A stretch of 64,000 bases of DNA from a virus, in IMG/VR virus record IMGVR_UViG_3300046318_000529, positions 4,190 through 68,189 of that record. The stretch is one strand, 5' to 3'. Position numbers and translations under genes: made by a program. This document shows, in pieces, positions 8,628 to 62,177 of this stretch. Below the pieces are notes generated by a model. That model saw only the letters and a program-made list of their open reading frames with translations, was not told the origin of the DNA and did no database searches. Every line of letters starts with the position of its first letter. The stretch's first letter is position 1.

Positions 8628-8654
8628 ACTAACCCTACTTTTTGTTAGGGTTAG
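8628..8654 (+). terminator. stem-loop after nrdA
   Basis: CTAACCCTA / TAGGGTTAG inverted repeat; weak U-tract. Confidence 0.4.
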
Positions 8655-8683
8655 TTGTCACTTAATATTCAGGAGGTGCGGGT

Positions 8684-9841
8684 TTGAAGATCTCTAAAAA
8701 GGAAAATAGGGCAAACCTTAATATCATGGCGTTTTACGGTAACGATGATGTTTTTTATTTATCTCGATCTTTTTCTGAGGGTTTTTGTAAGAAACCAAGC
8801 AATAATAGTAGAAAAGTCAGGAGAATAACTGACCTTATCCTTTTGTTAATTTCCAATGGCCTATACCACTATCCAGAACCTTTCGGTATTTCAATTTCCT
8901 CTGGTGTGACGTTAAAAGGACAACAATACTCATCTTTTGTGCTCAGGAAAGTTGTTAATTACTTAGTGAAAAGGGAGGTTATAAACTATAAGAAAGGTTA
9001 TAGCTTCAAAGGTAATGTACAAAATTCACAAATAGTCCTTGTTCCTTCTTTTCTTAAGAGTTACAAAGAGGAACTAGCTACGGCTAAACAAGATAAAGGA
9101 ACTAGGCGTGTATTTATTAGGGACAAGAACAAAGAGGACATGTTTAAGGAATACAATGACAACACTTTCATGTCTCAGGTTTTTCTTAACAAATACGAGG
9201 ACTTCCTGATAAGTAACAATGTTCTACTAGATGGACTGCCACTTACTGTATCACCTATCTATCGGATTTTTAATGGAGATGAAGATCACGGAGGAAGGCT
9301 ATATGGGAAGTGGACTAACCTACCTAAAGAGACAAGGAAAAGGATTACAATAGGAGGAGAAGGCCTGGCAGAAATTGACTTGAAAGCTTGTACATTGTCA
9401 ATAGCTTGTCATCTTAATGGTATAGAATTAGATAGAGATCCTTACGATTTTGGTGTAAAAAGAGATGTAGCTAAAAAGGCTATGATAATAATGTTTTACT
9501 CTCAGACAGAAATCAGGGCTAAGAGGGCTATAGCAGGGTTAGGAGCAGTTAACGGATTTAAAAAGGGAGAGCTCTTCACCAAGTGTGTTAACCACTTAGA
9601 AGAGAAGGGACTTAAAGGGATAATGATGAAGGGTGAAGGATTGTCCTACATTAAGAAAGAGTCTGATTTTTGTATTGACGTAGTTAATACTTGTATTGAG
9701 CAAAAGGTTGTGGTACTTTCAATACACGATGCTTTCCTGTGCAGGGTTAGCGATGTGGATAAACTGCAAAATAACATAGATATAACCTACTTAAAATGTT
9801 TTAAAAGGCTACCCGAATGTCACAGAATGTTGTTAGATTGA
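8684..9841 (+). CDS. uncharacterised protein with family A polymerase-like palm motifs
   Basis: GGRLY, EIDLKAC (motif A-like), RDVAKKAM (motif B-like), SIHDAF (motif C-like); AGGAGG RBS with TTG start. Confidence 0.65.
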   Translation: MKISKKENRANLNIMAFYGNDDVFYLSRSFSEGFCKKPSNNSRKVRRITDLILLLISNGLYHYPEPFGISISSGVTLKGQQYSSFVLRKVVNYLVKREVINYKKGYSFKGNVQNSQIVLVPSFLKSYKEELATAKQDKGTRRVFIRDKNKEDMFKEYNDNTFMSQVFLNKYEDFLISNNVLLDGLPLTVSPIYRIFNGDEDHGGRLYGKWTNLPKETRKRITIGGEGLAEIDLKACTLSIACHLNGIELDRDPYDFGVKRDVAKKAMIIMFYSQTEIRAKRAIAGLGAVNGFKKGELFTKCVNHLEEKGLKGIMMKGEGLSYIKKESDFCIDVVNTCIEQKVVVLSIHDAFLCRVSDVDKLQNNIDITYLKCFKRLPECHRMLLD

Positions 9842-10197
9842 AAACTAAAGACAAAAGTACTTTTAAACTGTTCATCCAATATGTCTTCAGGAACTACGGT
9901 AATAAGGTAGGTATGAGGCTTGAGGACTTGTTAATGTTCATGTGGTATGAGAAAACTTTTCCTAAAGAACTCCTAAATAGGGAAGAACTTTCGAGTATTT
10001 ATTCAGAATTCAAAGAGGATTGTGATAAGCTGACAGATTCTCTTTGTAAGTTTGAGAAGTTTAAAGAGCCTTCACAGAAAGCTTTTGTCGCTACAATATT
10101 AGTGTTAACGGAACTATCACTAGGTTATGGAATATTCCCTAGTGATTATGGCTTCAGTAGCTTCTTTGATTCCCAGGAAAATGTCGATTTCACTTAG
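9817..10197 (+). CDS. hypothetical protein
   Basis: 126-aa ORF directly upstream of RNAP. Confidence 0.6.
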   Translation: MSQNVVRLKTKDKSTFKLFIQYVFRNYGNKVGMRLEDLLMFMWYEKTFPKELLNREELSSIYSEFKEDCDKLTDSLCKFEKFKEPSQKAFVATILVLTELSLGYGIFPSDYGFSSFFDSQENVDFT

Positions 10198-10205
10198 GAA
10201 ACAGT

Positions 10206-12509
10206 ATGTCGCCAATCGAAAAACAAATAATTGCTGAGAAAGAGATACTCGATTTAGGTGTATCTAAACTTAAGGAAGTAGCTCTAGAAACTCTCAACGG
10301 AGAGGAAGGGTGGTTACATTCTTATGTCAGGGAATTAGTTTGGCCACTGTCTTTAGTGATACAGGATAGGTTTGAGGCAGAAGATAAAAGAGGAGGGGCA
10401 GGAAGGAAGACCTTATTTTACACCTTACTTAAAGAGGGGTTTGATCCTTTTGCCATATCTGTTTGTGTTCTTAACGCGACAATAAAAAGTGCGATACAAG
10501 AGAGGATACTCTTAACAATCTTATCGGGGGAGATAGGCAATAACATACAGGACTATTTTGGTAAAAAAATAACTAAATTCAATAAAATAGGACTAGGTGT
10601 AACTTTGCTTCACTCTCTTTCAGTTTCTTCACCAGGACTTTTTGAACTTGAGAAGGATATGGCTACAGGTACGGCAATTTACATGGTACAATTTAAAAGT
10701 TGTAGTAGTTTTAAAACCATAAAAAAATGTATTTCTCTTATATTGGGGAGGTATAGCCCTATGTCTGTTCCTCCTAAAACTTGGACAACAAGTAAAGAGG
10801 GTGGGTACCTATCGAGTGACTTATCTAAAAAAGCAACACTAGTAAGAAAAAGGAGTTCTGAAGCATATGAGAGTGTTTATAGTTATGAAGCAATGCCAGA
10901 TGTCTATGATTCAGTCAACTACATACAATCAGTACCTTACAGAATAAACAGTTTTATTTATGACGCGTTCACAAAAGCAGTGAGAAAGGGATTGAAAGTC
11001 AAAAACCTCCCAGCTTGCAAGCCTCTTACTTTATACTCTTATCCTCTACCAAAAAAACTAACTAAAGATAAGATGACAGAGGAACAAAGAGGTGTTCTTA
11101 AGAAGTGGATGACTGTTAATGGGCACATCAGGAAGGAGAAACAAAGATACCAATCAAAGATGTTCAACATAAAGATCATTAAAGAGGTTTGCGGTAAACT
11201 CCTTAACGAGGGAGACTTCTATTTCCCCCACAACCTAGATTATAGGGGGAGAATATATCCTGTTCCTGTTATTTTTAATCTTCACAGTCTAGACTATGTA
11301 AGGGCTATGTTGTTGTTTTCAGAAGAGAAAGCCCTCAAAAATGAGGAGGGTGTTAAATGGTTAGCAGTCCATGGTGCAAACTGTTTCGGGGTGGATAAAG
11401 AGTCATATGAAGACAGGGAGAGATGGGTAAAAGATAATGAGATGGCTATTCTTTTCGCGTACAGAGAACCTATGGCCTCTACTTTTTGGCACAAAGCTAA
11501 AGACCCTTTTCAGTTTCTAGCGTTTTGTAAAGAGTGGGCAGGGTATTGCAAGTTTGGTTATGGGTACAAAACAGGGCTGCCTATTGGGGTGGATGCAACT
11601 TGTTCTGGTTTGCAACATTACAGCGCTATGTTAAAAGACCCTGTAGGGGCTAGGTATGTTAACATCCTGCCGTCAAATAAACCCCAAGATATATATCAAG
11701 AAGTGGCTAATGTACTTGTCAAAAAACTAGAAGAGCTGGTGGCCTCAGGGGCTATACAAGACTCAGAAGAGGCTAAAAAATGGCTGGCACTAGGGATTAA
11801 TAGGAGTACTACTAAGAGGGTGGTTATGACAACTGTCTACAGTTTAACCCAATACGCATCTAGACAATATATTGAAGAGTACATAATAGACACCAACAAA
11901 GATGCCTTTATAGATACCTTTAAGGCCAGTTTATGGTTGTCGCCTTTTCTTTGGAAAGCCGTCACAGAGGTGATAAAAGGTGCAAGGGTAGCTATGGATT
12001 ACCTTAAAATGTGTACAAAAGACCTATCTAAGATGCAGGAAGGGATAATATGGCAGGTTCCTAGTGGTTTTATATCCCACCAAAAATGTATGAAGAAAGA
12101 GAAAAAAGAAGTCAAGTGTGATTTTGGAGACAGGAGGATATCTCTCACTATCTATGATGACTCAGACAAGATAAACTCAAGTAAACAAGTTAATGCAGTT
12201 TGCCCTAATATTATCCACAGCCTAGATGCCTGTCATCTAATGATGGTTGCTAATAGGTCTAAAGGGGAGGGTTTGTCAGGGTTCGGTGCTATACATGATT
12301 GTTTTTTTACGCACCCTAGTGATGTAGGTGTTTTACAGAAGGTTATAAGAGAGTCTTTTGTGGACATGTACCATGAAAGTTCTTTTTTAGAAGATTTTAA
12401 GGTCTTCTTAGAATATAAATATAACATAAAACTACCTCAAGTACCTGTAGATGATAGTTTTACCCTCAACCTAAGAGAGGTCTTACAAAGCCCTTATTTT
12501 TTCTGCTAG
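10206..12509 (+). CDS. T7-like single-subunit DNA-directed RNA polymerase
   Basis: PMSVPPKTW, DYRGRIY, DATCSGLQH, RSTTKRVVMTTVY, PNIIHSLDA, IHDCF, SPYFF. Confidence 0.97.
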   Translation: MSPIEKQIIAEKEILDLGVSKLKEVALETLNGEEGWLHSYVRELVWPLSLVIQDRFEAEDKRGGAGRKTLFYTLLKEGFDPFAISVCVLNATIKSAIQERILLTILSGEIGNNIQDYFGKKITKFNKIGLGVTLLHSLSVSSPGLFELEKDMATGTAIYMVQFKSCSSFKTIKKCISLILGRYSPMSVPPKTWTTSKEGGYLSSDLSKKATLVRKRSSEAYESVYSYEAMPDVYDSVNYIQSVPYRINSFIYDAFTKAVRKGLKVKNLPACKPLTLYSYPLPKKLTKDKMTEEQRGVLKKWMTVNGHIRKEKQRYQSKMFNIKIIKEVCGKLLNEGDFYFPHNLDYRGRIYPVPVIFNLHSLDYVRAMLLFSEEKALKNEEGVKWLAVHGANCFGVDKESYEDRERWVKDNEMAILFAYREPMASTFWHKAKDPFQFLAFCKEWAGYCKFGYGYKTGLPIGVDATCSGLQHYSAMLKDPVGARYVNILPSNKPQDIYQEVANVLVKKLEELVASGAIQDSEEAKKWLALGINRSTTKRVVMTTVYSLTQYASRQYIEEYIIDTNKDAFIDTFKASLWLSPFLWKAVTEVIKGARVAMDYLKMCTKDLSKMQEGIIWQVPSGFISHQKCMKKEKKEVKCDFGDRRISLTIYDDSDKINSSKQVNAVCPNIIHSLDACHLMMVANRSKGEGLSGFGAIHDCFFTHPSDVGVLQKVIRESFVDMYHESSFLEDFKVFLEYKYNIKLPQVPVDDSFTLNLREVLQSPYFFC

Positions 12510-13245: not shown

Positions 13246-15795
13246 ATGAGAGACGATGCTTATGATGATAAAGATAAGATTTTCAAGCCTCAGCCAGGCC
13301 CACAGACAGCCTTTATAGAAAGTAAAGCGGATATTGCCATTTATGGGGGCTCAGCAGGCTCGGGTAAGCTCTTGATTTTAAAGGAGAAAGTACAAACGCC
13401 CACAGGAGAGGTTGAGATACAAGATGTAAAAGTAGGAGACAAGATCTTTAACCCTGACGGCAACACTCAAGACATTCTTCAAATACACCATCATAAAAAT
13501 GTTAATATTTATAAAGTTTCATTTAATGATGGCACATTTGTAAAGGCTTGTGAAGATCATCTATGGAACACTTGGAAGGCAGGCATAAGAACCAACAAAG
13601 CCATAAAACTGATTAAAAGTGGAACCCCTGATCCAGTTTTTAGCCTCTACCCACTGTCAGCTGAGGTAATGCGCACTAAAGATATAAAAGACAACTGGTT
13701 GTCAAAAGGGATAAAACCTCTGATACCTTGCACAAAACCCCTAGACTACAAAATAAAGAGCAACCTACTAAAAATAGACCCTTACCTCCTTGGGATTCTT
13801 ATAGGGGACGGTTGCTTCTCTGATAAGAGTATGGTTAGGAGTAAAAGGATACGTATTTGTAAGCCAGACAAAGAAATCCTAGAATATCCCTCTAAAGTAG
13901 GGTTCTCGACTGAAATTATCCCACCCTCTGGGTCTAAATGCCCTTACGTAGAGTTTAAAAGGGATAAAAAAGACGCTGAACTAAGGGAGGATCTGGTTAA
14001 GTGCGGTTTGTTTGGGACTTATTCACACAGTAAGTTTATACCAGAAGAGTTTTTTACCCGCCCATTAAAAGACAGGTTATCACTGGTTCAAGGGATATTT
14101 GACACAGACGGCACTTGTGCAGAAAAAGAATCCAACATAACATGGACTACTGTTTCTGAGAAACTGTCTGAAGGGGTTGTAAAATTAGTACAATCTTTAG
14201 GAGGGTGGGTCTCTGTATCTACAGAGGAAGCTGGGGTGAACCCTAACAGGAAACATAAAAGAGATTGCCAAAAACTTTATAAACATTATGTGAAACTCCC
14301 TGTAGAGTGCCCTCCTTTTAGGATGAAGAGAAAACTTTCCAAATACAGGAAACCTACTAGGAGGTTGTATAGAACGATAGTTTCTATCGAGTTTGATCAC
14401 ATAGGAGAAGGGAAGTGCCTAACTGTATCTAACCCTAACGGACTTTTCATAACCACAAATTTTATAGTGACCCACAACTCTTTTGCAATTCTTTTGGAAT
14501 CTTTGAGGAACATTAATATTCCTAATTTTTACACAATGATTTTGAGAAGAACTTCTAATGAGGTACTAGGCCCAGGATCTTTATGGGATGAATCTCACAA
14601 TATTTACCCTCATTTTGAAGGGGAGTCTTTTGTTACTAGAAGAACTTGGAAGTTCCCTACTGGGGCTAAAACTCAGTTTGCTTTTATAGAATTAGAGAAG
14701 GATTTGGAGAGGTTCAAAGGTACACAAGCCCCTCTAATCATGTTTGATGAGTTGACAACATTTTCAGAACGTATGTTTTTCTATATGTTATCAAGGAACA
14801 GGTCAACCACAGGTATCCCTGGCTACATTCGTGCTACTACTAACCCTGAAGAAGGTTGGGTAAGAAAACTCATAGCTTGGTGGTTAGATGACACAGGTTA
14901 CCCTATCCCTTATCGTTCTGGCGTTATCCGTTGGTTTGTAAGGATAGAAGGAGAGATGTTTTGGGCAGACAAGCCGGAGGAACTTATTGAGATGTTCCCT
15001 GGCCAACGAGTCCTACCTAAGTCTTTAACTTTCATCCCGGCTAAGTTGTCAGACAATAAAAAGATGATGGATAAAGACCCAGGGTATGAATCTTCACTGA
15101 TGGCCATGTCAAGGGTAGACCGTCTTAAATTGTTAGACGGCTGTTGGCTAGCACAAGCTACTTTCGGAAGCTATTTTGAGAGGTCTTGGTGTGACCTAGT
15201 AATGATGCCAGATGAACCTTGCCGATGGGTAAGGTACTGGGATAGAGCTTCTTCTGAGCCGAGTGAAACATACCCAAACCCAGATTATACTGCTGGTGTT
15301 TTGATGGGTATAGGTAAACAAACAGGCTCATTCTACATAAAAGATGTGGTAAGGTTTAGGGCAAAACCAATGAAAGTCCATGCTGAAATCAGAAAAACAG
15401 CTGAAAAGGATAAAAAACTTTACGGCAATGTTCGTGTCGTAATAGAGAAAGATCCAGGACAAGCAGGGGCATCAGATGCTCACTACCTTGTCAACCACCT
15501 CAAAGGGTTTGAAGTCAGAGTAAGAAGTGCTACTAAAGATAAGCTTACACGGTTCCTGCCTTTCTCAGCAGCAGCAGAGAATGGCTTAATTAAGGTTTGC
15601 CGTGGGGAATGGAATGAAGCTTTCTTAGCTGAACTAGAAAGGTTTATAGGTGATGGCGTAGGAAAGGACGATCAAGTGGATGGAGCTAGTGGTGGTTTTA
15701 ATGAGCTACTAAGTAAAGCGTACTCAGCACCTAATCTCGTAATGCCAGACTTATCTTTCAAAGGACTAGGCATCTCATCTAATGTAAGGTTTTAA
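13246..15795 (+). CDS. terL: terminase large subunit, intein-containing
   Basis: YGGSAGSGK|S Walker A, FDELT Walker B, RATTNP, RYWDRA, DDQVDG nuclease motifs. Confidence 0.95.
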   Translation: MRDDAYDDKDKIFKPQPGPQTAFIESKADIAIYGGSAGSGKLLILKEKVQTPTGEVEIQDVKVGDKIFNPDGNTQDILQIHHHKNVNIYKVSFNDGTFVKACEDHLWNTWKAGIRTNKAIKLIKSGTPDPVFSLYPLSAEVMRTKDIKDNWLSKGIKPLIPCTKPLDYKIKSNLLKIDPYLLGILIGDGCFSDKSMVRSKRIRICKPDKEILEYPSKVGFSTEIIPPSGSKCPYVEFKRDKKDAELREDLVKCGLFGTYSHSKFIPEEFFTRPLKDRLSLVQGIFDTDGTCAEKESNITWTTVSEKLSEGVVKLVQSLGGWVSVSTEEAGVNPNRKHKRDCQKLYKHYVKLPVECPPFRMKRKLSKYRKPTRRLYRTIVSIEFDHIGEGKCLTVSNPNGLFITTNFIVTHNSFAILLESLRNINIPNFYTMILRRTSNEVLGPGSLWDESHNIYPHFEGESFVTRRTWKFPTGAKTQFAFIELEKDLERFKGTQAPLIMFDELTTFSERMFFYMLSRNRSTTGIPGYIRATTNPEEGWVRKLIAWWLDDTGYPIPYRSGVIRWFVRIEGEMFWADKPEELIEMFPGQRVLPKSLTFIPAKLSDNKKMMDKDPGYESSLMAMSRVDRLKLLDGCWLAQATFGSYFERSWCDLVMMPDEPCRWVRYWDRASSEPSETYPNPDYTAGVLMGIGKQTGSFYIKDVVRFRAKPMKVHAEIRKTAEKDKKLYGNVRVVIEKDPGQAGASDAHYLVNHLKGFEVRVRSATKDKLTRFLPFSAAAENGLIKVCRGEWNEAFLAELERFIGDGVGKDDQVDGASGGFNELLSKAYSAPNLVMPDLSFKGLGISSNVRF
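13369..14478 (+). mobile_element. class 3 intein with LAGLIDADG homing endonuclease (370 aa)
   Basis: Inserted between K and S of Walker A; block B CEDHLW, LLGILIGDG and QGIFDTDG, block F KCLTV, block G FIVTHN/S; starts with Leu. Confidence 0.88.
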
Positions 15796-15867: not shown

Positions 15868-17211
15868 ATGGATAAAAGTTTATATAAGCCCATAGGAGTT
15901 TCTGGCCTGCGCCACTCTGGTGGCATAATTCAGGAAGAGTTTCTACCTGAATTAAGGAACAGTGAAGCTCTTAAAGTTTTTAGACAAATGTCCACTAATG
16001 ATGCTACTGTCAGCTCAATGTTGTTTGCTATTAAAATGCTTATACGTGGAATAGAGTGGGATGTCACCCCTTTTTCAGACAAGCCTAGGCATATTAATCA
16101 AGCTGATGAATTGAGAACAATGCTAGATGATATGGATATAAGCTGGGCAGACACCCTCTCAGAGATTATGTCTTTTCTAGTTTACGGTTTCAGCATTCAT
16201 GAGATAGTCCTCAAAAAGCGTCAAGGCCGTAAAAAAGGCTCTAAATATAATGACGGTCTTGTGGGCATTAAAAAACTTGCAATTAGAGGCCAAGAAACTA
16301 TCCAATATTGGAAGTTTGATGAGTATGGTGACCTTTTGTGGGTGGAGCAAGTAGACCCTAATACCGCTAAACGTAACATTTTAAGGCGAGATAAGTTTCT
16401 TCTTTTCAAAGCAGATTCCTATAAAGAAAACCCAGCTTCTACCTCTATTCTAAGGAATAGTTACAGAGCATGGAAACTTAAAACTAAAATAGAAGATTAT
16501 GAAGCTGTAGGCATAAGTAGAGACTTAGCAGGAATGCCTGTTATATATGTTCCTGCTCAAATGCTAGGAGAAGATGCAACAGACGAAGAGAAAAGTGCAG
16601 TAGAATATTTCAAAAAGGTAATAACCTCTGTTCAAAACAACGAACAATCAGGTGTTATGATCCCTGCTCTCTATGACGAAAATGGTAACAAACTTTTTGA
16701 CTTCCAGCTAATGAGTTCAGGCGGGACAAGACAGTTCGATACTTCTGCAATTATCCAACGTTATAATACACAGATAGTGCAAACAGTACTGGCTGATTTT
16801 ATCATGCTTGGCCAAGGTTCACAAGGTTCTTATGCCCTTTCTAGTAATAAGACTAAGCTTTTTACAGTGGCCATCCAATCGTGGTTAAAATCTGTAGTCC
16901 ATGAATTAAACAACAACCTAGTTACTAAACTAGGTGAGTATAATGGTTGGAAGCAAGATGAGCTGCCAAGGATAACACACGGTGAACTTGAAAGCCAAGA
17001 TGTTAATGGTATCTCAACGTTCATATCCGACCTAGCTAAAGCTGGTGTTATCACATATGACGTTAAACTAGAGAACTACATGAGAAGTCTTGTAGATGGC
17101 CCACTTACCGATGGAAGTGGTAAACCCTTAGGGGCAGCTAATAAAGATAATAAAAATGTTACTACTACCCCAACTGCATCAGGCAAACCAACAGGAGAGG
17201 CGAAAACTTAA
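15868..17211 (+). CDS. portal protein
   Basis: Follows TerL; YGFSIHEIV, RDLAGMPV, LADFIMLG, GSYALS. Confidence 0.88.
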   Translation: MDKSLYKPIGVSGLRHSGGIIQEEFLPELRNSEALKVFRQMSTNDATVSSMLFAIKMLIRGIEWDVTPFSDKPRHINQADELRTMLDDMDISWADTLSEIMSFLVYGFSIHEIVLKKRQGRKKGSKYNDGLVGIKKLAIRGQETIQYWKFDEYGDLLWVEQVDPNTAKRNILRRDKFLLFKADSYKENPASTSILRNSYRAWKLKTKIEDYEAVGISRDLAGMPVIYVPAQMLGEDATDEEKSAVEYFKKVITSVQNNEQSGVMIPALYDENGNKLFDFQLMSSGGTRQFDTSAIIQRYNTQIVQTVLADFIMLGQGSQGSYALSSNKTKLFTVAIQSWLKSVVHELNNNLVTKLGEYNGWKQDELPRITHGELESQDVNGISTFISDLAKAGVITYDVKLENYMRSLVDGPLTDGSGKPLGAANKDNKNVTTTPTASGKPTGEAKT

Positions 17212-25284: not shown

Positions 25285-25490
25285 CCAGCTCAGAGTCTGA
25301 AGTACACCCAGTAAGCAAAAAAATTGCTAAAGAATCACAATTAGAGTTAACCTTGTGGAGGCCAGTTCTCGCCAAGGTGGCCTCATGGCATGAAGTATCA
25401 ACATATTGGACAATCAACGACTTATACGATTGTATTGAGGCGCTTGATATAGAACACGCCTACGAGGCACACCAAAACAAAAAAGGTTAG
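25257..25490 (+). CDS. tail chaperone frameshift extension (gpGT-like, -1 frame; not in ORF track)
   Basis: T TTT TTG slippery site at 25257-25263; -1 frame opens right after a TGA and reads ...LWRPVLAKVASWHEVSTYWTINDLYDCIEALD... to TAG 25490. Confidence 0.72.
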   Translation, partial: FFGTKRFSVASSESEVHPVSKKIAKESQLELTLWRPVLAKVASWHEVSTYWTINDLYDCIEALDIEHAYEAHQNKKG

Positions 25491-25494
25491 ACTA

Positions 25495-27443
25495 ATGGAA
25501 AACTTATCCGGTGCGATAGCCCAATTCTTTGCCACTTTATCTATCAAAATAGACAAGGCTGGCATTGACACTGCACTAAAATCAATGAAGGCTCTTGTTG
25601 AATCAAGCAACGAATTAGCCGTTAAACTCCATGTAGCTCTTGATACCAGTGGCATAAAATCTCAATTAACTAAAGTAAAAGAACAACTCAACCTGACAGT
25701 AAACACAGCTACTGCAAAAGAGGCTACATCTAGTCAAATAAGAAAAGTAAAAGATAAGGTCACTAGGGGAGATCTAATAAAAGCTGCCGACATCCACACA
25801 AATATGGTGAAGGATGTTGGGCCTAATAGACTTGAGAACATGCTTAACCAAGCTGACCATCTTAAAAATGTCATGGCTGAGATGGATAAAGGCACACTAA
25901 ACCTTGCACAAGACTTTAAGGGGCGCCTAATACCCACTTCAGAACAGTTAGGTGTGTCCTTTAAAAAGCTTCAAGGACAAATAGAACTTTTAAGGACACA
26001 AAACTTGTCCCCTAAAGCTACCAAAAACATGGTCAGCAGGGTACAAACCTCCTCCAAAGAGCTTGAGTCACTTTTACCTATTATGGGTGCTGAGAATGCT
26101 AAACCTATGGCTACTTTAGCTAACAGAAGATTAGCAGATATCTCAGCACTAGACAAGGCTGGCACTAAAGGTTTCGAGCCTTCTAAGGCTATCTTTGAGG
26201 AAGTTATCAGGAAGGCCAGTAAAACTCTCGGAGATGCGTCACAAGGCAAGGCACAGGAGATTAATAGGTCACAGTACAACAGGACGTTAGATAGGCTTAA
26301 AGAGCACGCTGCGCAGATTAAGGAGGGTTTAAGTAACCTTGCGCCTAGTCAAAGATCATTTGGTGCAAGAGCATTGCCTCAATTAAAAGCTAACACTGGT
26401 GTTTTTGGTAAAGATGACCAAAACTTCATCTCTGGATATGAAAAACTTCTAGTATCTCAAAGAGAAGTTGCTAAAAATAACAGAACTATTAATGAGCTTA
26501 AGAAATATGAGCATCAAATTAATAGAGAGTTAGCTAAAGATGACGCATCTGCTGCTATCAAACAGTCAGCTACTTATTCAAAAAGAATAAGAGAGCTTAA
26601 GTCGCTTATCAGTAATGAAGAAAAGCTCCTTAAGACAATGTACGAGAAGAAGAATGGTAAAGGAAGCTTTAGGCCAGGCTCTGAAGAAGCTAGAAAGTTC
26701 TCTTTAAGTGAGCCATACCTCAACGCTTTACCTAGACGTGGCCCTAATACAGGCCTTCTTGAGGCACAATCTCAAGACCTACTTAACAGGTTGTTATTAT
26801 CTGAGGTAGCCCTTAAAGAGCGAATTAGCGGCGTACAACAAAGAATAAATAGTTCTGAAATAGGTTCTATTGAAAACAACAAAGCTTTGATTGAGCTGCA
26901 AAAAGTACAGAGTAACCTTCAATCAGTTATGAGTTCTAAAATGGCTGTAGCAGGAGATGCTTCTGTTGCCCGTTATAGAGCGGAAGAAGTATCGATACGT
27001 AATCAAGAAAGATCACTAGGTGGCTTCTTACAACGTACCAGAACATTAATGACAGGTATCAGGGACATAGCTAATAACATATTCCTACCCTTCATTGCTT
27101 TCTCTGGTGCTAAATACATCAGTGATGTAGCTGCTAAAGTATCATCACTTAAAGCTAGCTTAGAGGCTATTACAGGCAGTACAGCCGCAGGAGCAGATGA
27201 GTTTGCCTTCTTAGAAGCAGAAGCTAAAAGGTTAGGTGTCACATTAGGTGGCGTAGGTAAAGAATACGTTAAGCTTGTAGGTTCAACAACCTTATCAGGT
27301 ATTGACAGTAAAGTGACCAGAGACCTTTTCACAGGGGTATCACAGTCTGCTGCTGTCTTTAACCTTGATGATCAAGAAACAGGAAGAGTATTAACCGCAC
27401 TAGGTCAAATTGCCTCTAAAGGTAAGGTATATTCTGAAGAGCT
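25495..27443 (+). CDS. tape measure protein, exon 1
   Basis: Long helical protein ending ALGQIASKGKVYSEEL at the intron 5' splice site. Confidence 0.88.
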
Positions 27444-52740: not shown

Positions 52741-54951
52741 TTAATGGGTATTTAACCACGAAAGGCCTTCTTTCGCTACACCGTCCAGAGGGCACTTGAG
52801 TTTGTAATATTCTCCAGCCTCTACAATAGACTCTACAAGCGCCTCTTTTGCAAACTCCCTGTGTTTAGGGTCAGTTATTATCTGTTGCTCGTCATGCATG
52901 AAAGTTACTAAATTGTAAGGCACCCTGGCCTTCTTAAACATCTCTTTAGCTATAATGATGCTTCTTTTGTATACAATAGCTCCTGTGCTTTGTATCTTAA
53001 GGTTCAGTGCAGCATGAGGTGCTCTGCATGTCAGCTTCCTGCCATCTATACCTACTAGATATTTATTAGCTTTGGCGAAATCTTTTAGTTTGGTAACAAG
53101 CTCACCCAGCTCTGGAATACCATTCAAGTAGTTAGATGTGATATTAGCGCCTATAACTGTATTCTGTGCTACTAAGAAGTTGACAGGTGATTCACCCCTC
53201 TTCTCCATGTAAGGCAGGATAAACGTACCATCACCTACTTTCTTCCATCCATACGATAATATCTCACTTAGTCCTACAGAGTCTCTACCATTATCAGCCA
53301 TTGATCCTAATTTATCTTTACCACCACCATACAGAAAAGCATATGTTACACCTTTGCTTGCACCTCTAGACCCTATCCATTTAACATTCACACCCCAGAA
53401 CCTGGAATGGATATCACCTGATATTACTTCAGCTGTAAACTCAGGGTCATCTAAGAAATGGGCTAATAACCTCAATTCTATCCCGCTTGCATCACAACCT
53501 ATTAGGGCTGGTTTGCAAGTCTCAACAGTGATTACTTTCTTCTGTCCCTTACTATCTAATACATAGTTGCCATCTTTGTCTCTCAGTTCTGTTTTAAATG
53601 ACCACATAGGATACTCTGGACTGTTACCAGATGTAAACATCTTTCTAAAATGTGGGCCATAAAGTGTATCAACAGAAGGCAGGTTCACAATACCCCTATG
53701 CGTACCTCTTCCTGTAACAGCCCCTACAGTGTTGTTATAAGGCGTAATACGGCCATCTTCTCTGATAAGGTTAAGTAGGCCTTTACCTTCTTTCTTGCCT
53801 TTCAAAACATTCCTTCTGTGCATCAGTTGTGACCTAAGGGATATCTTCCCTAGTACAGGTGTCTTCTTTGCCACCCTTTCTAAGCTCTGCTCACAAATCT
53901 GAGGAGACCCCTTGTCAGTGAACTGTAATGGCTCCCACCCCTGTGTCAGGAGGTAGGTTTTCAGTTGACTGTATGAGTTTATGTCCACTTTCTCAAAAGT
54001 AACCTTTGTGAACGGCCCAGACACATTAACAAAATCATCACCAAACCATTTCTTAACAGTCTCTGAATGTGCACTGTTACCTTTACACCACTTCATTGTA
54101 GGTTTTGGCAGTTTCTCGTGCCTTTTAGAGTACACTGACTTGAAGCGGGATACCCACTCCTCTACGCCAGACTTCATTACATCCCTTAAAACAAATTCAT
54201 TATAGGTACCCTGCTCCATTAACTCTGTATGCCAAACTACAAGGTAAGGTAATAGTCTATTTAACTCTTCGTCTATCTTCTCTACCTCACCGTTTATTTT
54301 GTTATAAACCTTCTCCATCCAAACTCTATCAACAGGGAACCCTCTGACCTCTGAGTCAAACATGATAGATGAGATCTCATGCTCCATAACCAGAGCTGCA
54401 TTCCACTTCACACCTTTACCAGCTTCATGTCTGTTATCTTTTTCTTTGCTTAAGTGTTCATAAAGTTTCCTAGTAACAACAACATCTTGGATGTTATATC
54501 TCAGCATCTCTAAAGAGAATTGGGAGAAATCGTGGAAGTCCCCTTTAGGCATCTGTAACCTCTCCCCCCAAGCCCTTAGCGAGTGGCCGCCTAGTCTGTC
54601 TGGTGAAAATATAGAGCTTAATATGAAAGTATCTGTGCATTTTTCCCACGACAGGCCAGTACCTAGTAGTTTATTTACTAAAGGGATGTCAAATTTAACT
54701 ATATTGTGCCCAATAATCCTCTTAGCTTCATTAAGTAGTTTTGGAAGAGATGACATTGGGTAGATGTACACACTAGAGCTTTTACACCATTGAACTACCC
54801 TCTTCTTTACTTCACCTGTAATATCTGAGATGTGATTATCGTGTATAAAGATGTGCCAAGCCAGCCCATCTAGGTCAAAACATGATGCACACCATATTTT
54901 TTTAGCTGTATCATATAGACCATCAGATTCTAGATCAAATATCAGTTTCAT
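52741..54951 (-). CDS. DNA polymerase family A (T7-like)
   Basis: FDLESDG, GHNIVKFD, YNIQDV exonuclease; TGR, CDASGIELR, RGASKGVTYAFLYG, MHDE. Confidence 0.96.
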   Translation of the reverse strand: MKLIFDLESDGLYDTAKKIWCASCFDLDGLAWHIFIHDNHISDITGEVKKRVVQWCKSSSVYIYPMSSLPKLLNEAKRIIGHNIVKFDIPLVNKLLGTGLSWEKCTDTFILSSIFSPDRLGGHSLRAWGERLQMPKGDFHDFSQFSLEMLRYNIQDVVVTRKLYEHLSKEKDNRHEAGKGVKWNAALVMEHEISSIMFDSEVRGFPVDRVWMEKVYNKINGEVEKIDEELNRLLPYLVVWHTELMEQGTYNEFVLRDVMKSGVEEWVSRFKSVYSKRHEKLPKPTMKWCKGNSAHSETVKKWFGDDFVNVSGPFTKVTFEKVDINSYSQLKTYLLTQGWEPLQFTDKGSPQICEQSLERVAKKTPVLGKISLRSQLMHRRNVLKGKKEGKGLLNLIREDGRITPYNNTVGAVTGRGTHRGIVNLPSVDTLYGPHFRKMFTSGNSPEYPMWSFKTELRDKDGNYVLDSKGQKKVITVETCKPALIGCDASGIELRLLAHFLDDPEFTAEVISGDIHSRFWGVNVKWIGSRGASKGVTYAFLYGGGKDKLGSMADNGRDSVGLSEILSYGWKKVGDGTFILPYMEKRGESPVNFLVAQNTVIGANITSNYLNGIPELGELVTKLKDFAKANKYLVGIDGRKLTCRAPHAALNLKIQSTGAIVYKRSIIIAKEMFKKARVPYNLVTFMHDEQQIITDPKHREFAKEALVESIVEAGEYYKLKCPLDGVAKEGLSWLNTH

Positions 54952-56705
54952 TTATTGGCCCCTCCTTTAAATATAACACCACCCAGTTCCTGTTTCTCTA
55001 ACATCCACCCAGTTTCTGGTGTATACACAAAATCACAAACTTTCCCTGTCTCCCCCCAAACCCTATTTTTCCGTATGTGACACTCTATTACATTAGAGCC
55101 TTCCGCTACATTCCTAGATAAAGTGATAATATTGAAGGCCAGTTGCTCTATTGAGGATGAGCCTTTTGTGGATTCAGCTAATATCTCGCCACCTTTTGAG
55201 GCTACAGAGGAACCATTACCCCTTTTTATGTGGCTTACAATAAAGATATGGCAACCTGTTTTTACTGCAAAAGTGGCTAATTGTGTCATTACTTGCCCAA
55301 TAACTTTATGGTCTCCGCCTTTATCTTGGTTATTGTTCCCATCAATAAGCATTGATAGATGGTCTAGGATAATAAATTTACAATCCTTAGCATATACTAG
55401 GTAGTGTATTTTCTCAATTAAATCCTCTATAGACATAGAGCCAAACTGGTCAACATAAACCTCCATAGAAGTGACTTCTTTAAGGCCTTCTAGCCACTCC
55501 TCCTCTGTTAAAATAGAGGGATCTTCCGATAGGTTTTTTACTGCTTTTTCATAGTACAAAGCAACCCCTTGTTGTTTTGTGAATTGGACTGTTTGCTCTA
55601 GACAGAGGTATGCTACCCTTCTCTTTAGTTCTGTGGCTATGAAAAAACCTAGTGTCCTGGTAAATGTACTTTTCCCACAACTTGTACCAGCTGTGATTAC
55701 TGTCAACTCCCCTTCCCTTAGTCCTCCCAACTTTTCTGATAACTTTTGAAAAGGGATTGTAAGGCCTCTCTTTCTAGGGGTCATTATCTCCTCTAAAGTG
55801 GTGTCCCTCCCGTCTACTACCCAACTAGGGACAAAAGGTTTAGCCTTGTAGTAGGCATTTATAAAGTCTTGGTAACCTTGTTGGCCGCCCATAAGTGCAT
55901 CATTAGCGTCTTTATAGTCTGAAGGTAGCTTCATTATCTTCAACTTATCTGTGAAACCAAGCACTTCTACAGCATCTTTTACTGCCTTCTGTCCAGGCTC
56001 GTCATTATCAAAACACACCAACACTTCGTCAAAACTGGAAAGGAATTCCAGATTATCCGCAAATACCCTTTTAACTGATCCTGCACCATCGGGGATAGAC
56101 ACTACATTGGCTTTGAAGTTACGGTATTTAGGATCTCCGGTCAACCTATGCTTCGCCATCATAGAGAATGCGGCAATTGCATCGAACTCTCCCTCTGTCA
56201 CTATTATTTTCTTAGCATTAGGGTCACATACCTCTTGGCCAAAAAAACCTAAACCTTTAGTATCTCCTACAGACTTCATAAACTGCTTAGGGATGCCCAC
56301 TACCTTATAAACCTTTCCACCTTTATATGGGAAATAAACTACATTAACTTCCCCCGACACTTCTGACACAGTTGTCTTCACGCCATAATAAGCTAATGCC
56401 TTCTGCTTAAGCCCACGATGCTTTATTTCAAGCGTAGGAAGCTCAGCCACATCTAAGGCTGATAAGGGCTTAGCATAGCTATTCTTATCGATTTTAGGTG
56501 CTTCCTGGTCATTTGAAAAATGGCCCACAGAATGAGGCACATCATCACTATCCAGCAACGAGATGTCATTTTTAGTGTAAAATTTACTACATCTATCGCA
56601 ATACCCTGTTAAGGTTTCAAAAATCATAAGATGGTTATCTGTTTTGTCTCTACCTTTAGCTTTACAGCCAGGGCAAGCGATACTCCTAATAATCTTATTA
56701 GCCAT
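54948..56705 (-). CDS. primase-helicase (T7 gp4-like)
   Basis: CPGC...CDRC zinc finger, TEGEFDA, FDNDEPG TOPRIM, AGTSCGKST, ILDHLS, KGSSSIEQ. Confidence 0.94.
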   Translation of the reverse strand: MANKIIRSIACPGCKAKGRDKTDNHLMIFETLTGYCDRCSKFYTKNDISLLDSDDVPHSVGHFSNDQEAPKIDKNSYAKPLSALDVAELPTLEIKHRGLKQKALAYYGVKTTVSEVSGEVNVVYFPYKGGKVYKVVGIPKQFMKSVGDTKGLGFFGQEVCDPNAKKIIVTEGEFDAIAAFSMMAKHRLTGDPKYRNFKANVVSIPDGAGSVKRVFADNLEFLSSFDEVLVCFDNDEPGQKAVKDAVEVLGFTDKLKIMKLPSDYKDANDALMGGQQGYQDFINAYYKAKPFVPSWVVDGRDTTLEEIMTPRKRGLTIPFQKLSEKLGGLREGELTVITAGTSCGKSTFTRTLGFFIATELKRRVAYLCLEQTVQFTKQQGVALYYEKAVKNLSEDPSILTEEEWLEGLKEVTSMEVYVDQFGSMSIEDLIEKIHYLVYAKDCKFIILDHLSMLIDGNNNQDKGGDHKVIGQVMTQLATFAVKTGCHIFIVSHIKRGNGSSVASKGGEILAESTKGSSSIEQLAFNIITLSRNVAEGSNVIECHIRKNRVWGETGKVCDFVYTPETGWMLEKQELGGVIFKGGANK

Positions 56706-61700: not shown

Positions 61701-62177
61701 CTAAAAATCATTAGCGTTAGTTATTAAATAACCATTTAATTTATAAACAGTACCCTCTAACATTAAATCACGACCGAAAGCTCTATAGTCTAAATAATGT
61801 AAAATAGTTTCTGGCACACTATAGCATTCAGTCATTAGACCGTAAGCGTAATCATCTAATGATTCAGATGAAACACAAACATCTTCAAACTTATCAAGTG
61901 CATAACTGATATCATGACCGCAACTTAGCAAGAATTCGACAGCTGTCAGTTGTTCTTCAGTCATATTTTCTAGTGTATCAGCAATATCAAATGATTCTTC
62001 TATATTACATTGTGTTACTTTCATACTATTAAAAATAACACTATTGAAATCAGCATCTAATAAATCGATCTCAAACTCTTCAGCACTTGTTGACAATAAA
62101 CCTTCTTCATACTCATCAAAACTAGAAAATTGAAAGCTTCTGTAATCACTGTTGTAAGGTCTTGCGTATAGTTTCAT
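61701..62177 (-). CDS. ardA: ArdA-like antirestriction DNA-mimic protein
   Basis: Highly acidic; EEFEI, VPETILHYLDYRAFGRDL; AGGAG RBS. Confidence 0.75.
   Translation of the reverse strand: MKLYARPYNSDYRSFQFSSFDEYEEGLLSTSAEEFEIDLLDADFNSVIFNSMKVTQCNIEESFDIADTLENMTEEQLTAVEFLLSCGHDISYALDKFEDVCVSSESLDDYAYGLMTECYSVPETILHYLDYRAFGRDLMLEGTVYKLNGYLITNANDF

Follow-up and report, generated by a model that had tools for sequence, protein, structure and literature searches.

The locus described here raises the question of why a phage that encodes a full DNA polymerase and a full RNA polymerase should also carry a short protein with the motifs of the same enzyme superfamily. The protein, which we refer to as ORF385, is encoded by an open reading frame (ORF) for 385 amino acids in a 64,000-nucleotide stretch of viral DNA, hereafter the window, that covers bases 4190-68189 of the 68,189-bp record IMGVR_UViG_3300046318_000529. 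The interval 8684-10197 contains 2 ORFs on the + strand, ORF385 followed by ORF126. An earlier note on this DNA had placed ORF385 as a third enzyme of the superfamily beside PolA (736 amino acids) and the full RNA polymerase, and this placement holds. The note had also called the protein an uncharacterised nucleotidyltransferase, which is right inasmuch as no assay of a protein of this kind was found in full-text literature searches, whereas the family itself has already been described, as divPolA2 (PMC11348598) and within the TV-Pol concept (PMC2579912). ORF385 belongs to the published divPolA2 family and is not a new kind of protein. Judged from its sequence, it is almost certainly an active enzyme in which a conserved family-A polymerase core is fused to a basic winged helix. 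The role of the enzyme is a more tentative matter, and to the reading that we prefer, a DNA-tethered polymerase that would start chains de novo, we assign a probability of about 0.45. The gene and its parts are as follows.

8684..9841, + strand: ORF385, a minimal winged-helix family-A polymerase of the divPolA2 family, with a TTG start and a match to phrog_4756 (E 1.7e-35)
8671..8676, + strand: AGGAGG, ribosome-binding site of ORF385, 7 nt 5' of the TTG, as read from the sequence
8741..9103, + strand: basic winged-helix domain of ORF385, residues ~20-140, isoelectric point (pI) 9.8-9.9
9104..9838, + strand: polymerase core of ORF385 (β-hairpin, palm and reduced fingers), residues ~141-385, from the model alignment of residues 131-385
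9290..9304, + strand: GGRLY, residues 203-207, β-hairpin of the T/DxxGR type with G204 and R205, from the alignment and the model strands
9371..9391, + strand: EIDLKAC, residues 230-236, motif A with the invariant D232, in which the Asp+5 residue is Thr237, from the alignment
9461..9499, + strand: RDVAKKAMIIMFY, residues 260-272, motif B or O-helix with R260, K264, and Y272, from the alignment and hhalign
9719..9736, + strand: SIHDAF, residues 346-351, motif C with the invariant H348 and D349, from the alignment, BLASTP, and hhalign

The motifs listed in the earlier note, GGRLY, EIDLKAC, RDVAKK (260-265), and SIHDAF, were found at these residues and in the order of Pol A. We aligned ORF385 with 80 relatives, which were picked by comparable length from the 150 phmmer matches listed and are not a random sample, and refer to the resulting alignment of 81 sequences as A1. 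The residues G204, R205, R218, D232, Y254, K264, H348, and D349 were invariant in A1, whereas Y207, E230, D252, R260, and L345 were conserved in at least 90% of the sequences, with D252 present in 75 and R260 in 80 of the 81. The 2 catalytic Asp positions (D232 and D349), which the note had reported as kept, were thus present in every aligned sequence, and the motif set is well beyond chance.

At the position 5 residues after the motif A Asp, the commonest residues in A1 were His (47 sequences), Gln (11), Thr (4), Ala (4), and Asn (3), and Glu was not among the commonest. The segment reads DASGIEL in the phage's own PolA and DATCSG in its own RNA polymerase, and the residue is Thr237 in ORF385. 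The missing Glu steric gate, as placed by the register of the motif, is compatible with the use of ribonucleotides, and a Thr at this position would fit their acceptance. At the position 8 residues after K264, where Pol I and T7 RNA polymerase carry the O-helix Tyr, Asn was present in 71 of the 81 sequences and Tyr in 4, ORF385 (Y272) among them.

The motifs could also be compared with those of RNA polymerases. In a BLASTP comparison with the phage's own RNA polymerase, SIHDAF aligned with AIHDCF (E 0.035) and DHGGRLY with DYRGRIY. Searches with the single sequence of ORF385 gave an E of 0.22 for the Pfam family RNA_pol (PF00940), covering residues 334-371 only and with 10.7 bits against a cut-off of 22, and an E of 0.019 for a PHROG RNA polymerase family, covering residues 333-374. 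When the family alignment was compared with 23 phage RNA polymerases in hhalign, the probability was 80% with an E of 1.3e-5 from motif B to motif C, and R260/K264 was paired with NRSTTKR and IHDSF with IHDCF. Neither Pfam nor NCBIfam contained a significant family for any of the 81 members, and RNA_pol matched 2 of the 81, at a best E of 0.067. The Pfam family DNA_pol_A (PF00476) gave no match to ORF385 at E <= 1 and was absent from the 23 families matched by the 81 members at E <= 0.1, and no RPOL_N match was obtained in the Pfam search with ORF385.

The structure predicted with AlphaFold2 from alignment A1 had a mean predicted local distance difference test (pLDDT) score of 90.4 and a predicted template modelling (pTM) score of 0.72, with disorder confined to residues 1-19. 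The earlier note had proposed a predicted model and a Foldseek search as a check, and the polymerase core was found: there were 132 matches in the PDB at E <= 0.001, and those listed were all family-A DNA polymerases, with 8jrb_A as the best match (E 6.7e-6). Residues 131-385 of the model could be aligned with structures both of family-A DNA polymerases and of single-subunit RNA polymerases, and the best 10 PDB superpositions covered 212-236 aligned residues at a root-mean-square deviation of 3.2-5.0 Å. From these superpositions of the polymerase core, the 2 catalytic Asp residues are predicted to lie together. Strands 193-197 and 203-207 of the model form a hairpin around GGRLY, and helices 121-134 and 159-176 sit N-terminal to it.

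The model consists of the winged helix and the polymerase core only, in agreement with the claim that ORF385 has no exonuclease domain. The basic N-terminal region that the earlier note had thought able to bind DNA is also borne out, since residues ~20-140 are modeled as a basic winged helix, and the N-terminal 140 residues contain 23 Lys and Arg against 10 Asp and Glu, with a pI of 9.9. The alignment profile gave a weak PadR-type match to solved structures (E 0.014), and a search of the solved structures with the single sequence gave only a chance match (E 0.89). We assign the identity and the fold of ORF385 with high confidence.

The divPolA2 family (Yutin et al. 2024, Virol J 21:200, PMC11348598) was first found in the barbaviruses of Rheinheimera, and its representative is AUR84708 of Vibrio phage 1.063.O. 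The A1 profile matched MG592441.1 at 25490-26707 on the - strand with an E of 2.8e-49, where AUR84708.1 is annotated at 25469-26761, and the pairwise BLASTP comparison of ORF385 with AUR84708 gave an E of 2e-9 with 29 of 99 residues identical. A fold search of BFVD matched A0A4P8NBL2 of Rheinheimera phage Barba31A (E 5.2e-18, TMq 0.55), and the best 11 BFVD matches were phage proteins of 400-450 amino acids with TMq values of 0.55-0.59. ORF385 bears the defining features of divPolA2, namely a palm that has motifs A to C and keeps the catalytic residues, an N-terminal globular domain in place of the canonical thumb without a 3'-5' exonuclease, and a gene that coexists with that of a regular replicative polymerase, here the 736-amino-acid PolA.

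A phmmer search with ORF385 matched 2236 representative clusters (50% identity) at E <= 0.001, 195 at E <= 1e-10, and 2 at E <= 1e-30, and the core common to the matches corresponds to residues ~187-378. The closest homologs were P0002, P0003, and P0167, and scans of metagenomic, genomic, and viral sequences for their gene context found nothing. In a tree of 60 sequences, ORF385 formed a clade with P0002 (48% identity) and P0003 (28%) with a support value of 99, and the proteins in this clade are short, 379-388 amino acids. Among the phage enzyme families that combine a clear catalytic fold with the lack of an assayed function, divPolA2 ranks with the largest, and members are found in well-studied phages such as ICP1. 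The finding alone is a further occurrence of a published family. Its value lies in the as yet unassayed function of so large a group and in the clean genetic context: with a complete replisome of the T7 type and a complete RNA polymerase encoded in the window, ORF385 cannot be a stand-in for either, and its clade keeps the canonical O-helix Tyr.

ORF385 differs from the other members in several respects. It is only 20% to 29% identical to most of them, and its clade has Tyr at K+8, as opposed to the prevailing Asn. The regular polymerase of the phage is a PolA and not a PolB. ORF385 is located directly upstream of a gene for a T7-like RNA polymerase, whereas 4 complete member genomes of 84-89 kb have no such polymerase. 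The N-terminal domain is read here as a winged helix, whereas no detectable similarity was reported for it by Yutin et al. (PMC11348598). In other phages, divPolA2 genes have variable neighborhoods and occur as 2-3 paralogs per genome (PMC11348598), and several of the phage records studied here hold family members at 2 places.

The 555-amino-acid product of ORF100 in the cholera phage ICP1 (HQ641347.1 53113-54780; 3114-4781 in locus L076) is a member of the family with a profile E of 6.9e-57. The early bidirectional peak of ICP1 replication, seen in the coverage, is reported "near the 60 kb position" (PMC7145576). At 53.1-54.8 kb, ORF100 is possibly a few kb from this peak, which is a weak lead as the coordinates may differ between isolates.

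ORF385 also fits the TV-Pol concept, in which (Iyer et al. 2008, Biol Direct 3:39, PMC2579912) a minimal family-A core consists of a hairpin Arg, 2 palm Asp residues and a fingers Asp with RxxxK, and for which prim-pol activity was predicted. All 4 features are present in ORF385, as R205 in the hairpin, D232 and D349 in the palm, and D252 and R260/K264 in the fingers, and like the TV-Pols it has no nuclease; an N-terminal globular domain is described in a subset of them. That domain is described as all-helical in PMC2579912, whereas the winged helix of ORF385 contains strands. TV-Pols have a bi-helical antiparallel thumb N-terminal to the hairpin, for which helices 121-134 and 159-176 of the ORF385 model are candidates. 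One of the named carriers of a TV-Pol is Microcystis phage Ma-LMM01, and a search of AB231700.1 with the A1 profile alone, at one sensitivity, gave no match. The genes typical of the TV-Pol context, for a D5-like helicase or for an integrase, resolvase, or transposase, do not adjoin ORF385, the neighbors of which are ribonucleotide reductase, ORF126, RNA polymerase, and terminase.

Among minimal A-family primases, only CcPol-MP has been assayed. It belongs to the PolA-SSB primases of SCCmec and other elements of the Bacillota (Bebel et al. 2020, PMC7581432; Rice 2023, PMC10061031). By these accounts, an A-family polymerase turns primase once a template-binding module is added: CcPol alone extends primers, and priming with deoxynucleoside triphosphates (dNTPs) requires that it be bound to MP, a small OB-fold protein from the gene immediately downstream (PMC7581432; PMC10061031). 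CcPol is derived from Pol I, keeps part of the 3'-5' exonuclease domain along with ribonucleotide-excluding residues, and sits in an operon with a helicase and serine recombinases (PMC10061031; PMC7581432). ORF385 resembles this system in its A-family catalytic core and in the small gene located directly 3' of the polymerase gene. It differs in that a winged helix is fused to the core where CcPol needs an OB-fold partner, and in that an RNA polymerase and a terminase follow ORF385 and ORF126 instead of a helicase or recombinase. ORF126 is predicted, at low confidence, to be helical.

From the T7-like RNA polymerases, including the minimal RNAPII of N4 (PDB 6dt7), ORF385 is set apart by its score below the Pfam RNA_pol cut-off, by the lack of an RPOL_N-type domain and by a core of ~245 residues, as compared with ~390 residues in the C-terminal part (379-767) of the RNA polymerase that the phage encodes. 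The fold is shared with the family-A DNA polymerases (Pol I, T7 DNA polymerase, and the apicoplast Pol), but ORF385 has no Pfam DNA_pol_A match, no exonuclease domain and no canonical thumb, and the Glu steric gate is replaced.

The phage's own PolA is encoded at 52741-54951 on the - strand and has an exonuclease-type N-terminus with an RNase-H fold. The T7-type set further includes a Toprim and DnaB primase-helicase at 54948-56705 on the - strand, a FEN-type exonuclease, a RuvC-type nuclease, and the full RNA polymerase. With PolA, the primase-helicase, and the full RNA polymerase all encoded by the phage, ORF385 is accessory and not the main replicase, primase, or transcriptase, and it would be produced along with the late RNA polymerase. 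In the reading that we prefer, it would be a template-dependent nucleotidyl transferase in which the winged helix replaces the usual thumb and accessory domains, while the minimal core would consist of the Arg-bearing β-hairpin, the palm with 2 metal-binding Asp residues, and short fingers with RxxxK. The winged helix would dock the protein on the phage DNA, perhaps at a particular site, and the core would start chains de novo, probably from nucleoside triphosphates. The products may be primers for the initiation or restart of replication, or short transcripts.

Several observations weigh against this proposal. The phage already has a DnaG-type primase, and the paralogs and variable neighborhoods seen in other phages would be unusual for an origin initiator. 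Apart from one unique hairpin, neither iterons nor repeats were found beside ORF385, and the GC skew has no feature at the gene. Of the precedents, CcPol-MP alone has been assayed, and it works with dNTPs and an OB-fold partner, neither of which is seen for ORF385. The steric-gate argument depends on the register of motif A, and no divPolA2 protein is known to have a measured activity.

Two other readings, which we consider unlikely and about equally so, also make ORF385 a polymerase. It might be a specialised second RNA polymerase, the winged helix of which picks a few promoters for the transcription of particular genes or of a non-coding RNA. In phage N4, the T7-like RNA polymerases in use number more than one. 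The present phage already has a complete enzyme of this type, and the core of ORF385, at ~245 residues, has neither a specificity loop nor an N-terminal promoter-opening domain. To our knowledge, there is no precedent for processive transcription by an enzyme as small as this core, and the Asn that 71 of the 81 members carry at K+8, in place of Tyr, also argues against an RNA polymerase. Alternatively, ORF385 might act as a primer-dependent DNA polymerase in repair, in the filling of gaps, or in the bypass of lesions, the role that Yutin et al. 2024 suggest first (PMC11348598). The best Foldseek matches, all of them family-A DNA polymerases, agree with such a role, and the consensus of motif A in the family, DYSxLHxR, resembles the motif as generally known from Pol I. 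The genome with the gene also has a replicative polymerase, many relatives can dispense with the gene, and ORF385, like the bypass polymerases, is without proofreading. The lack of a Glu steric gate speaks against this role, as do the neighboring genes, which are for ribonucleotide reductase and RNA polymerase and not for repair functions, and a winged helix of the sequence-specific type is no obvious asset for repair.

Less probable still is a conflict enzyme, active in counter-defence or exclusion on nucleotides or short oligonucleotides, or a DNA-binding regulator with a secondary catalytic site. The patchy distribution, the several paralogs per genome and the variable neighborhoods are typical of accessory conflict genes, and a defence role has been raised for the PolA-SSB primases by Rice 2023 (PMC10061031), which lends the idea some support. 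However, ORF385 had no match in PADLOC, and membership in a defence system was rejected on this ground. That the template- or primer-contacting Arg and the residues of motif B are strictly invariant points to a templated polymerase, and ORF385 is placed among genes for nucleotide metabolism and transcription and not among early anti-defence genes such as that for ArdA. The question of whether a family-A core of ~245 residues can start chains de novo bears on the origin of the DNA and RNA polymerases of the superfamily, and a polymerase of 385 residues that brings its own DNA-docking domain could serve as a tool enzyme.

The earlier note had described the locus as an operon leading to the RNA polymerase, and had suggested that ORF126 encodes a partner subunit. 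The features concerned are the following.

9817..10197, + strand: ORF126, a small gene with a 25-nt overlap with the 3' end of ORF385
10206..12509, + strand: T7-like single-subunit RNA polymerase of 767 amino acids, with matches to PF00940 (E 1.1e-98) and phrog_414

The operon is real in this phage, but a neighborhood survey indicated that it is a feature of the lineage and not of the family. We examined 42 viral-contig loci with full-length family members, and an RNA polymerase was found beside the family gene in only 2 of them, L015 and L016, which contain identical copies of the family protein. In the reverse direction, none of 21 loci around relatives of the RNA polymerase (~30% identity) held a family member within 6 kb. 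PF00940 was found in 1 of 5 family-bearing genomes searched, and the other 4, which are complete genomes of 84-89 kb, were without it. On these 3 counts, we rejected the idea that the family is generally linked to T7-like RNA polymerases. The RNA polymerase of the phage was 28% to 35% identical to the 25 matches listed.

The exception, L016, lies in G001, a record of 69,667 bp with terminal repeats, and contains in order the genes for a family member of 445 amino acids, an RNA polymerase of 682 amino acids, a 162-amino-acid ORF, terminase, and portal. The RNA polymerase of L016, encoded at 8843-10891, matched PF00940 with an E of 2.8e-69 and is very short for this class of enzymes. Between the window and L016, the polymerases are ~24% identical and the RNA polymerases ~31% identical, and the order of polymerase, RNA polymerase, small gene, and terminase is kept. 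L016 was placed on a long branch without a resolved position in the tree of 60 sequences. In the approximately unbiased (AU) test, a clade of the window, P0002, P0003, and L016 was not rejected (p 0.81), and the constrained tree was better by 24 log-likelihood units; common ancestry is therefore enough to explain the kept gene order. The conserved order is real and most simply inherited, and it is weak evidence for a functional pair.

The suggestion that ORF126 encodes a partner subunit has a true precedent in CcPol-MP, but no evidence for it was obtained in the tests described here. ORF126 is a genuine gene that is confined to this lineage, with 2 metagenomic homologs of 76% and 72% identity. 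Nothing significant was found for it in Pfam, PHROGs, or PADLOC, and the ESM Atlas contained nothing at 0.9 or above. The model of the protein had a pLDDT of 41.8 and was mostly helical at low confidence. We surveyed 44 family genes for downstream ORFs of at least 40 amino acids that start between -60 and +100 nt from the stop codon of the family gene. Such an ORF was present in 36 of the 44, and the ORFs fell into 32 BLASTP components, 29 of them singletons, with ORF126 on its own. The idea of a small downstream partner conserved across the family was rejected accordingly. ORF126 had no relative among the ORFs 3' of the 43 other family genes and none in the 42 related loci, and L016, from the only other phage type with a polymerase and RNA polymerase pair, has no equivalent of it. 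A co-fold of ORF385 (alignment A1) with ORF126 (alignment A4) scored 0.00 against a mark of 0.32 in a run without controls, and is evidence neither way.

It is conceivable, although we regard it as a long shot, that ORF385 picks the sites and makes the first nucleotides while the short RNA polymerase (767 amino acids; 682 in G001) or the replisome extends them, with ORF126 as a lineage-specific adaptor. This idea stems from the gene order kept between phage types with polymerases that are ~24% and RNA polymerases that are ~31% identical. If true, it would mean a division of labor between initiating and elongating family-A polymerases.

Upstream of ORF385, the same strand encodes a RecD/Dda-type helicase, PhoH, and both subunits of ribonucleotide reductase, while the genes downstream of ORF126 are those for the 767-amino-acid RNA polymerase, a 191-amino-acid ORF, the large terminase, and the portal. 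The hairpin mentioned above is located immediately 5' of the gene.

8628..8655, + strand: perfect 10-bp hairpin with an 8-nt T-rich loop, between the stop codon of the reductase large subunit and the ribosome-binding site of ORF385

This hairpin is unique, with 1 match in the window against 0 expected, and it is not among the listed intrinsic terminators of the window. Its assignment to the ORF385 system is uncertain. A stretch of ~600 bp without long ORFs was also noted at 2390-2990, which is a possible regulatory or origin region and which the earlier note had named for use in templates. A perfect 25-nt inverted repeat, with arms at 2803-2827 and 2944-2968 that are separated by 116 nt, is located in it, as is a 12-bp hairpin (2413-2424 and 2441-2452).

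The phage has an unusual combination of modules in ~68 kb, with a portal and terminase that resemble those of myoviruses of the Felix-O1 type and of barbaviruses, together with a T7-like RNA polymerase, a primase-helicase of the T7 gp4 type, PolA, and ArdA. The portal, encoded at 15868-17211, is 36% to 41% identical to the nearest records among the matches listed, and the gene for the ArdA anti-restriction protein is located at 61701-62177 on the - strand. The gene for the large terminase, a protein of 849 amino acids encoded at 13246-15795 on the + strand, is split by an intein-like insert that bears a LAGLIDADG homing endonuclease, with domain matches to PF14528 at residues 279-319 and to PF05204 at residues 276-348. 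Residues 16-45 and 412-821 of this terminase align with the unbroken 599-amino-acid terminase of L016.

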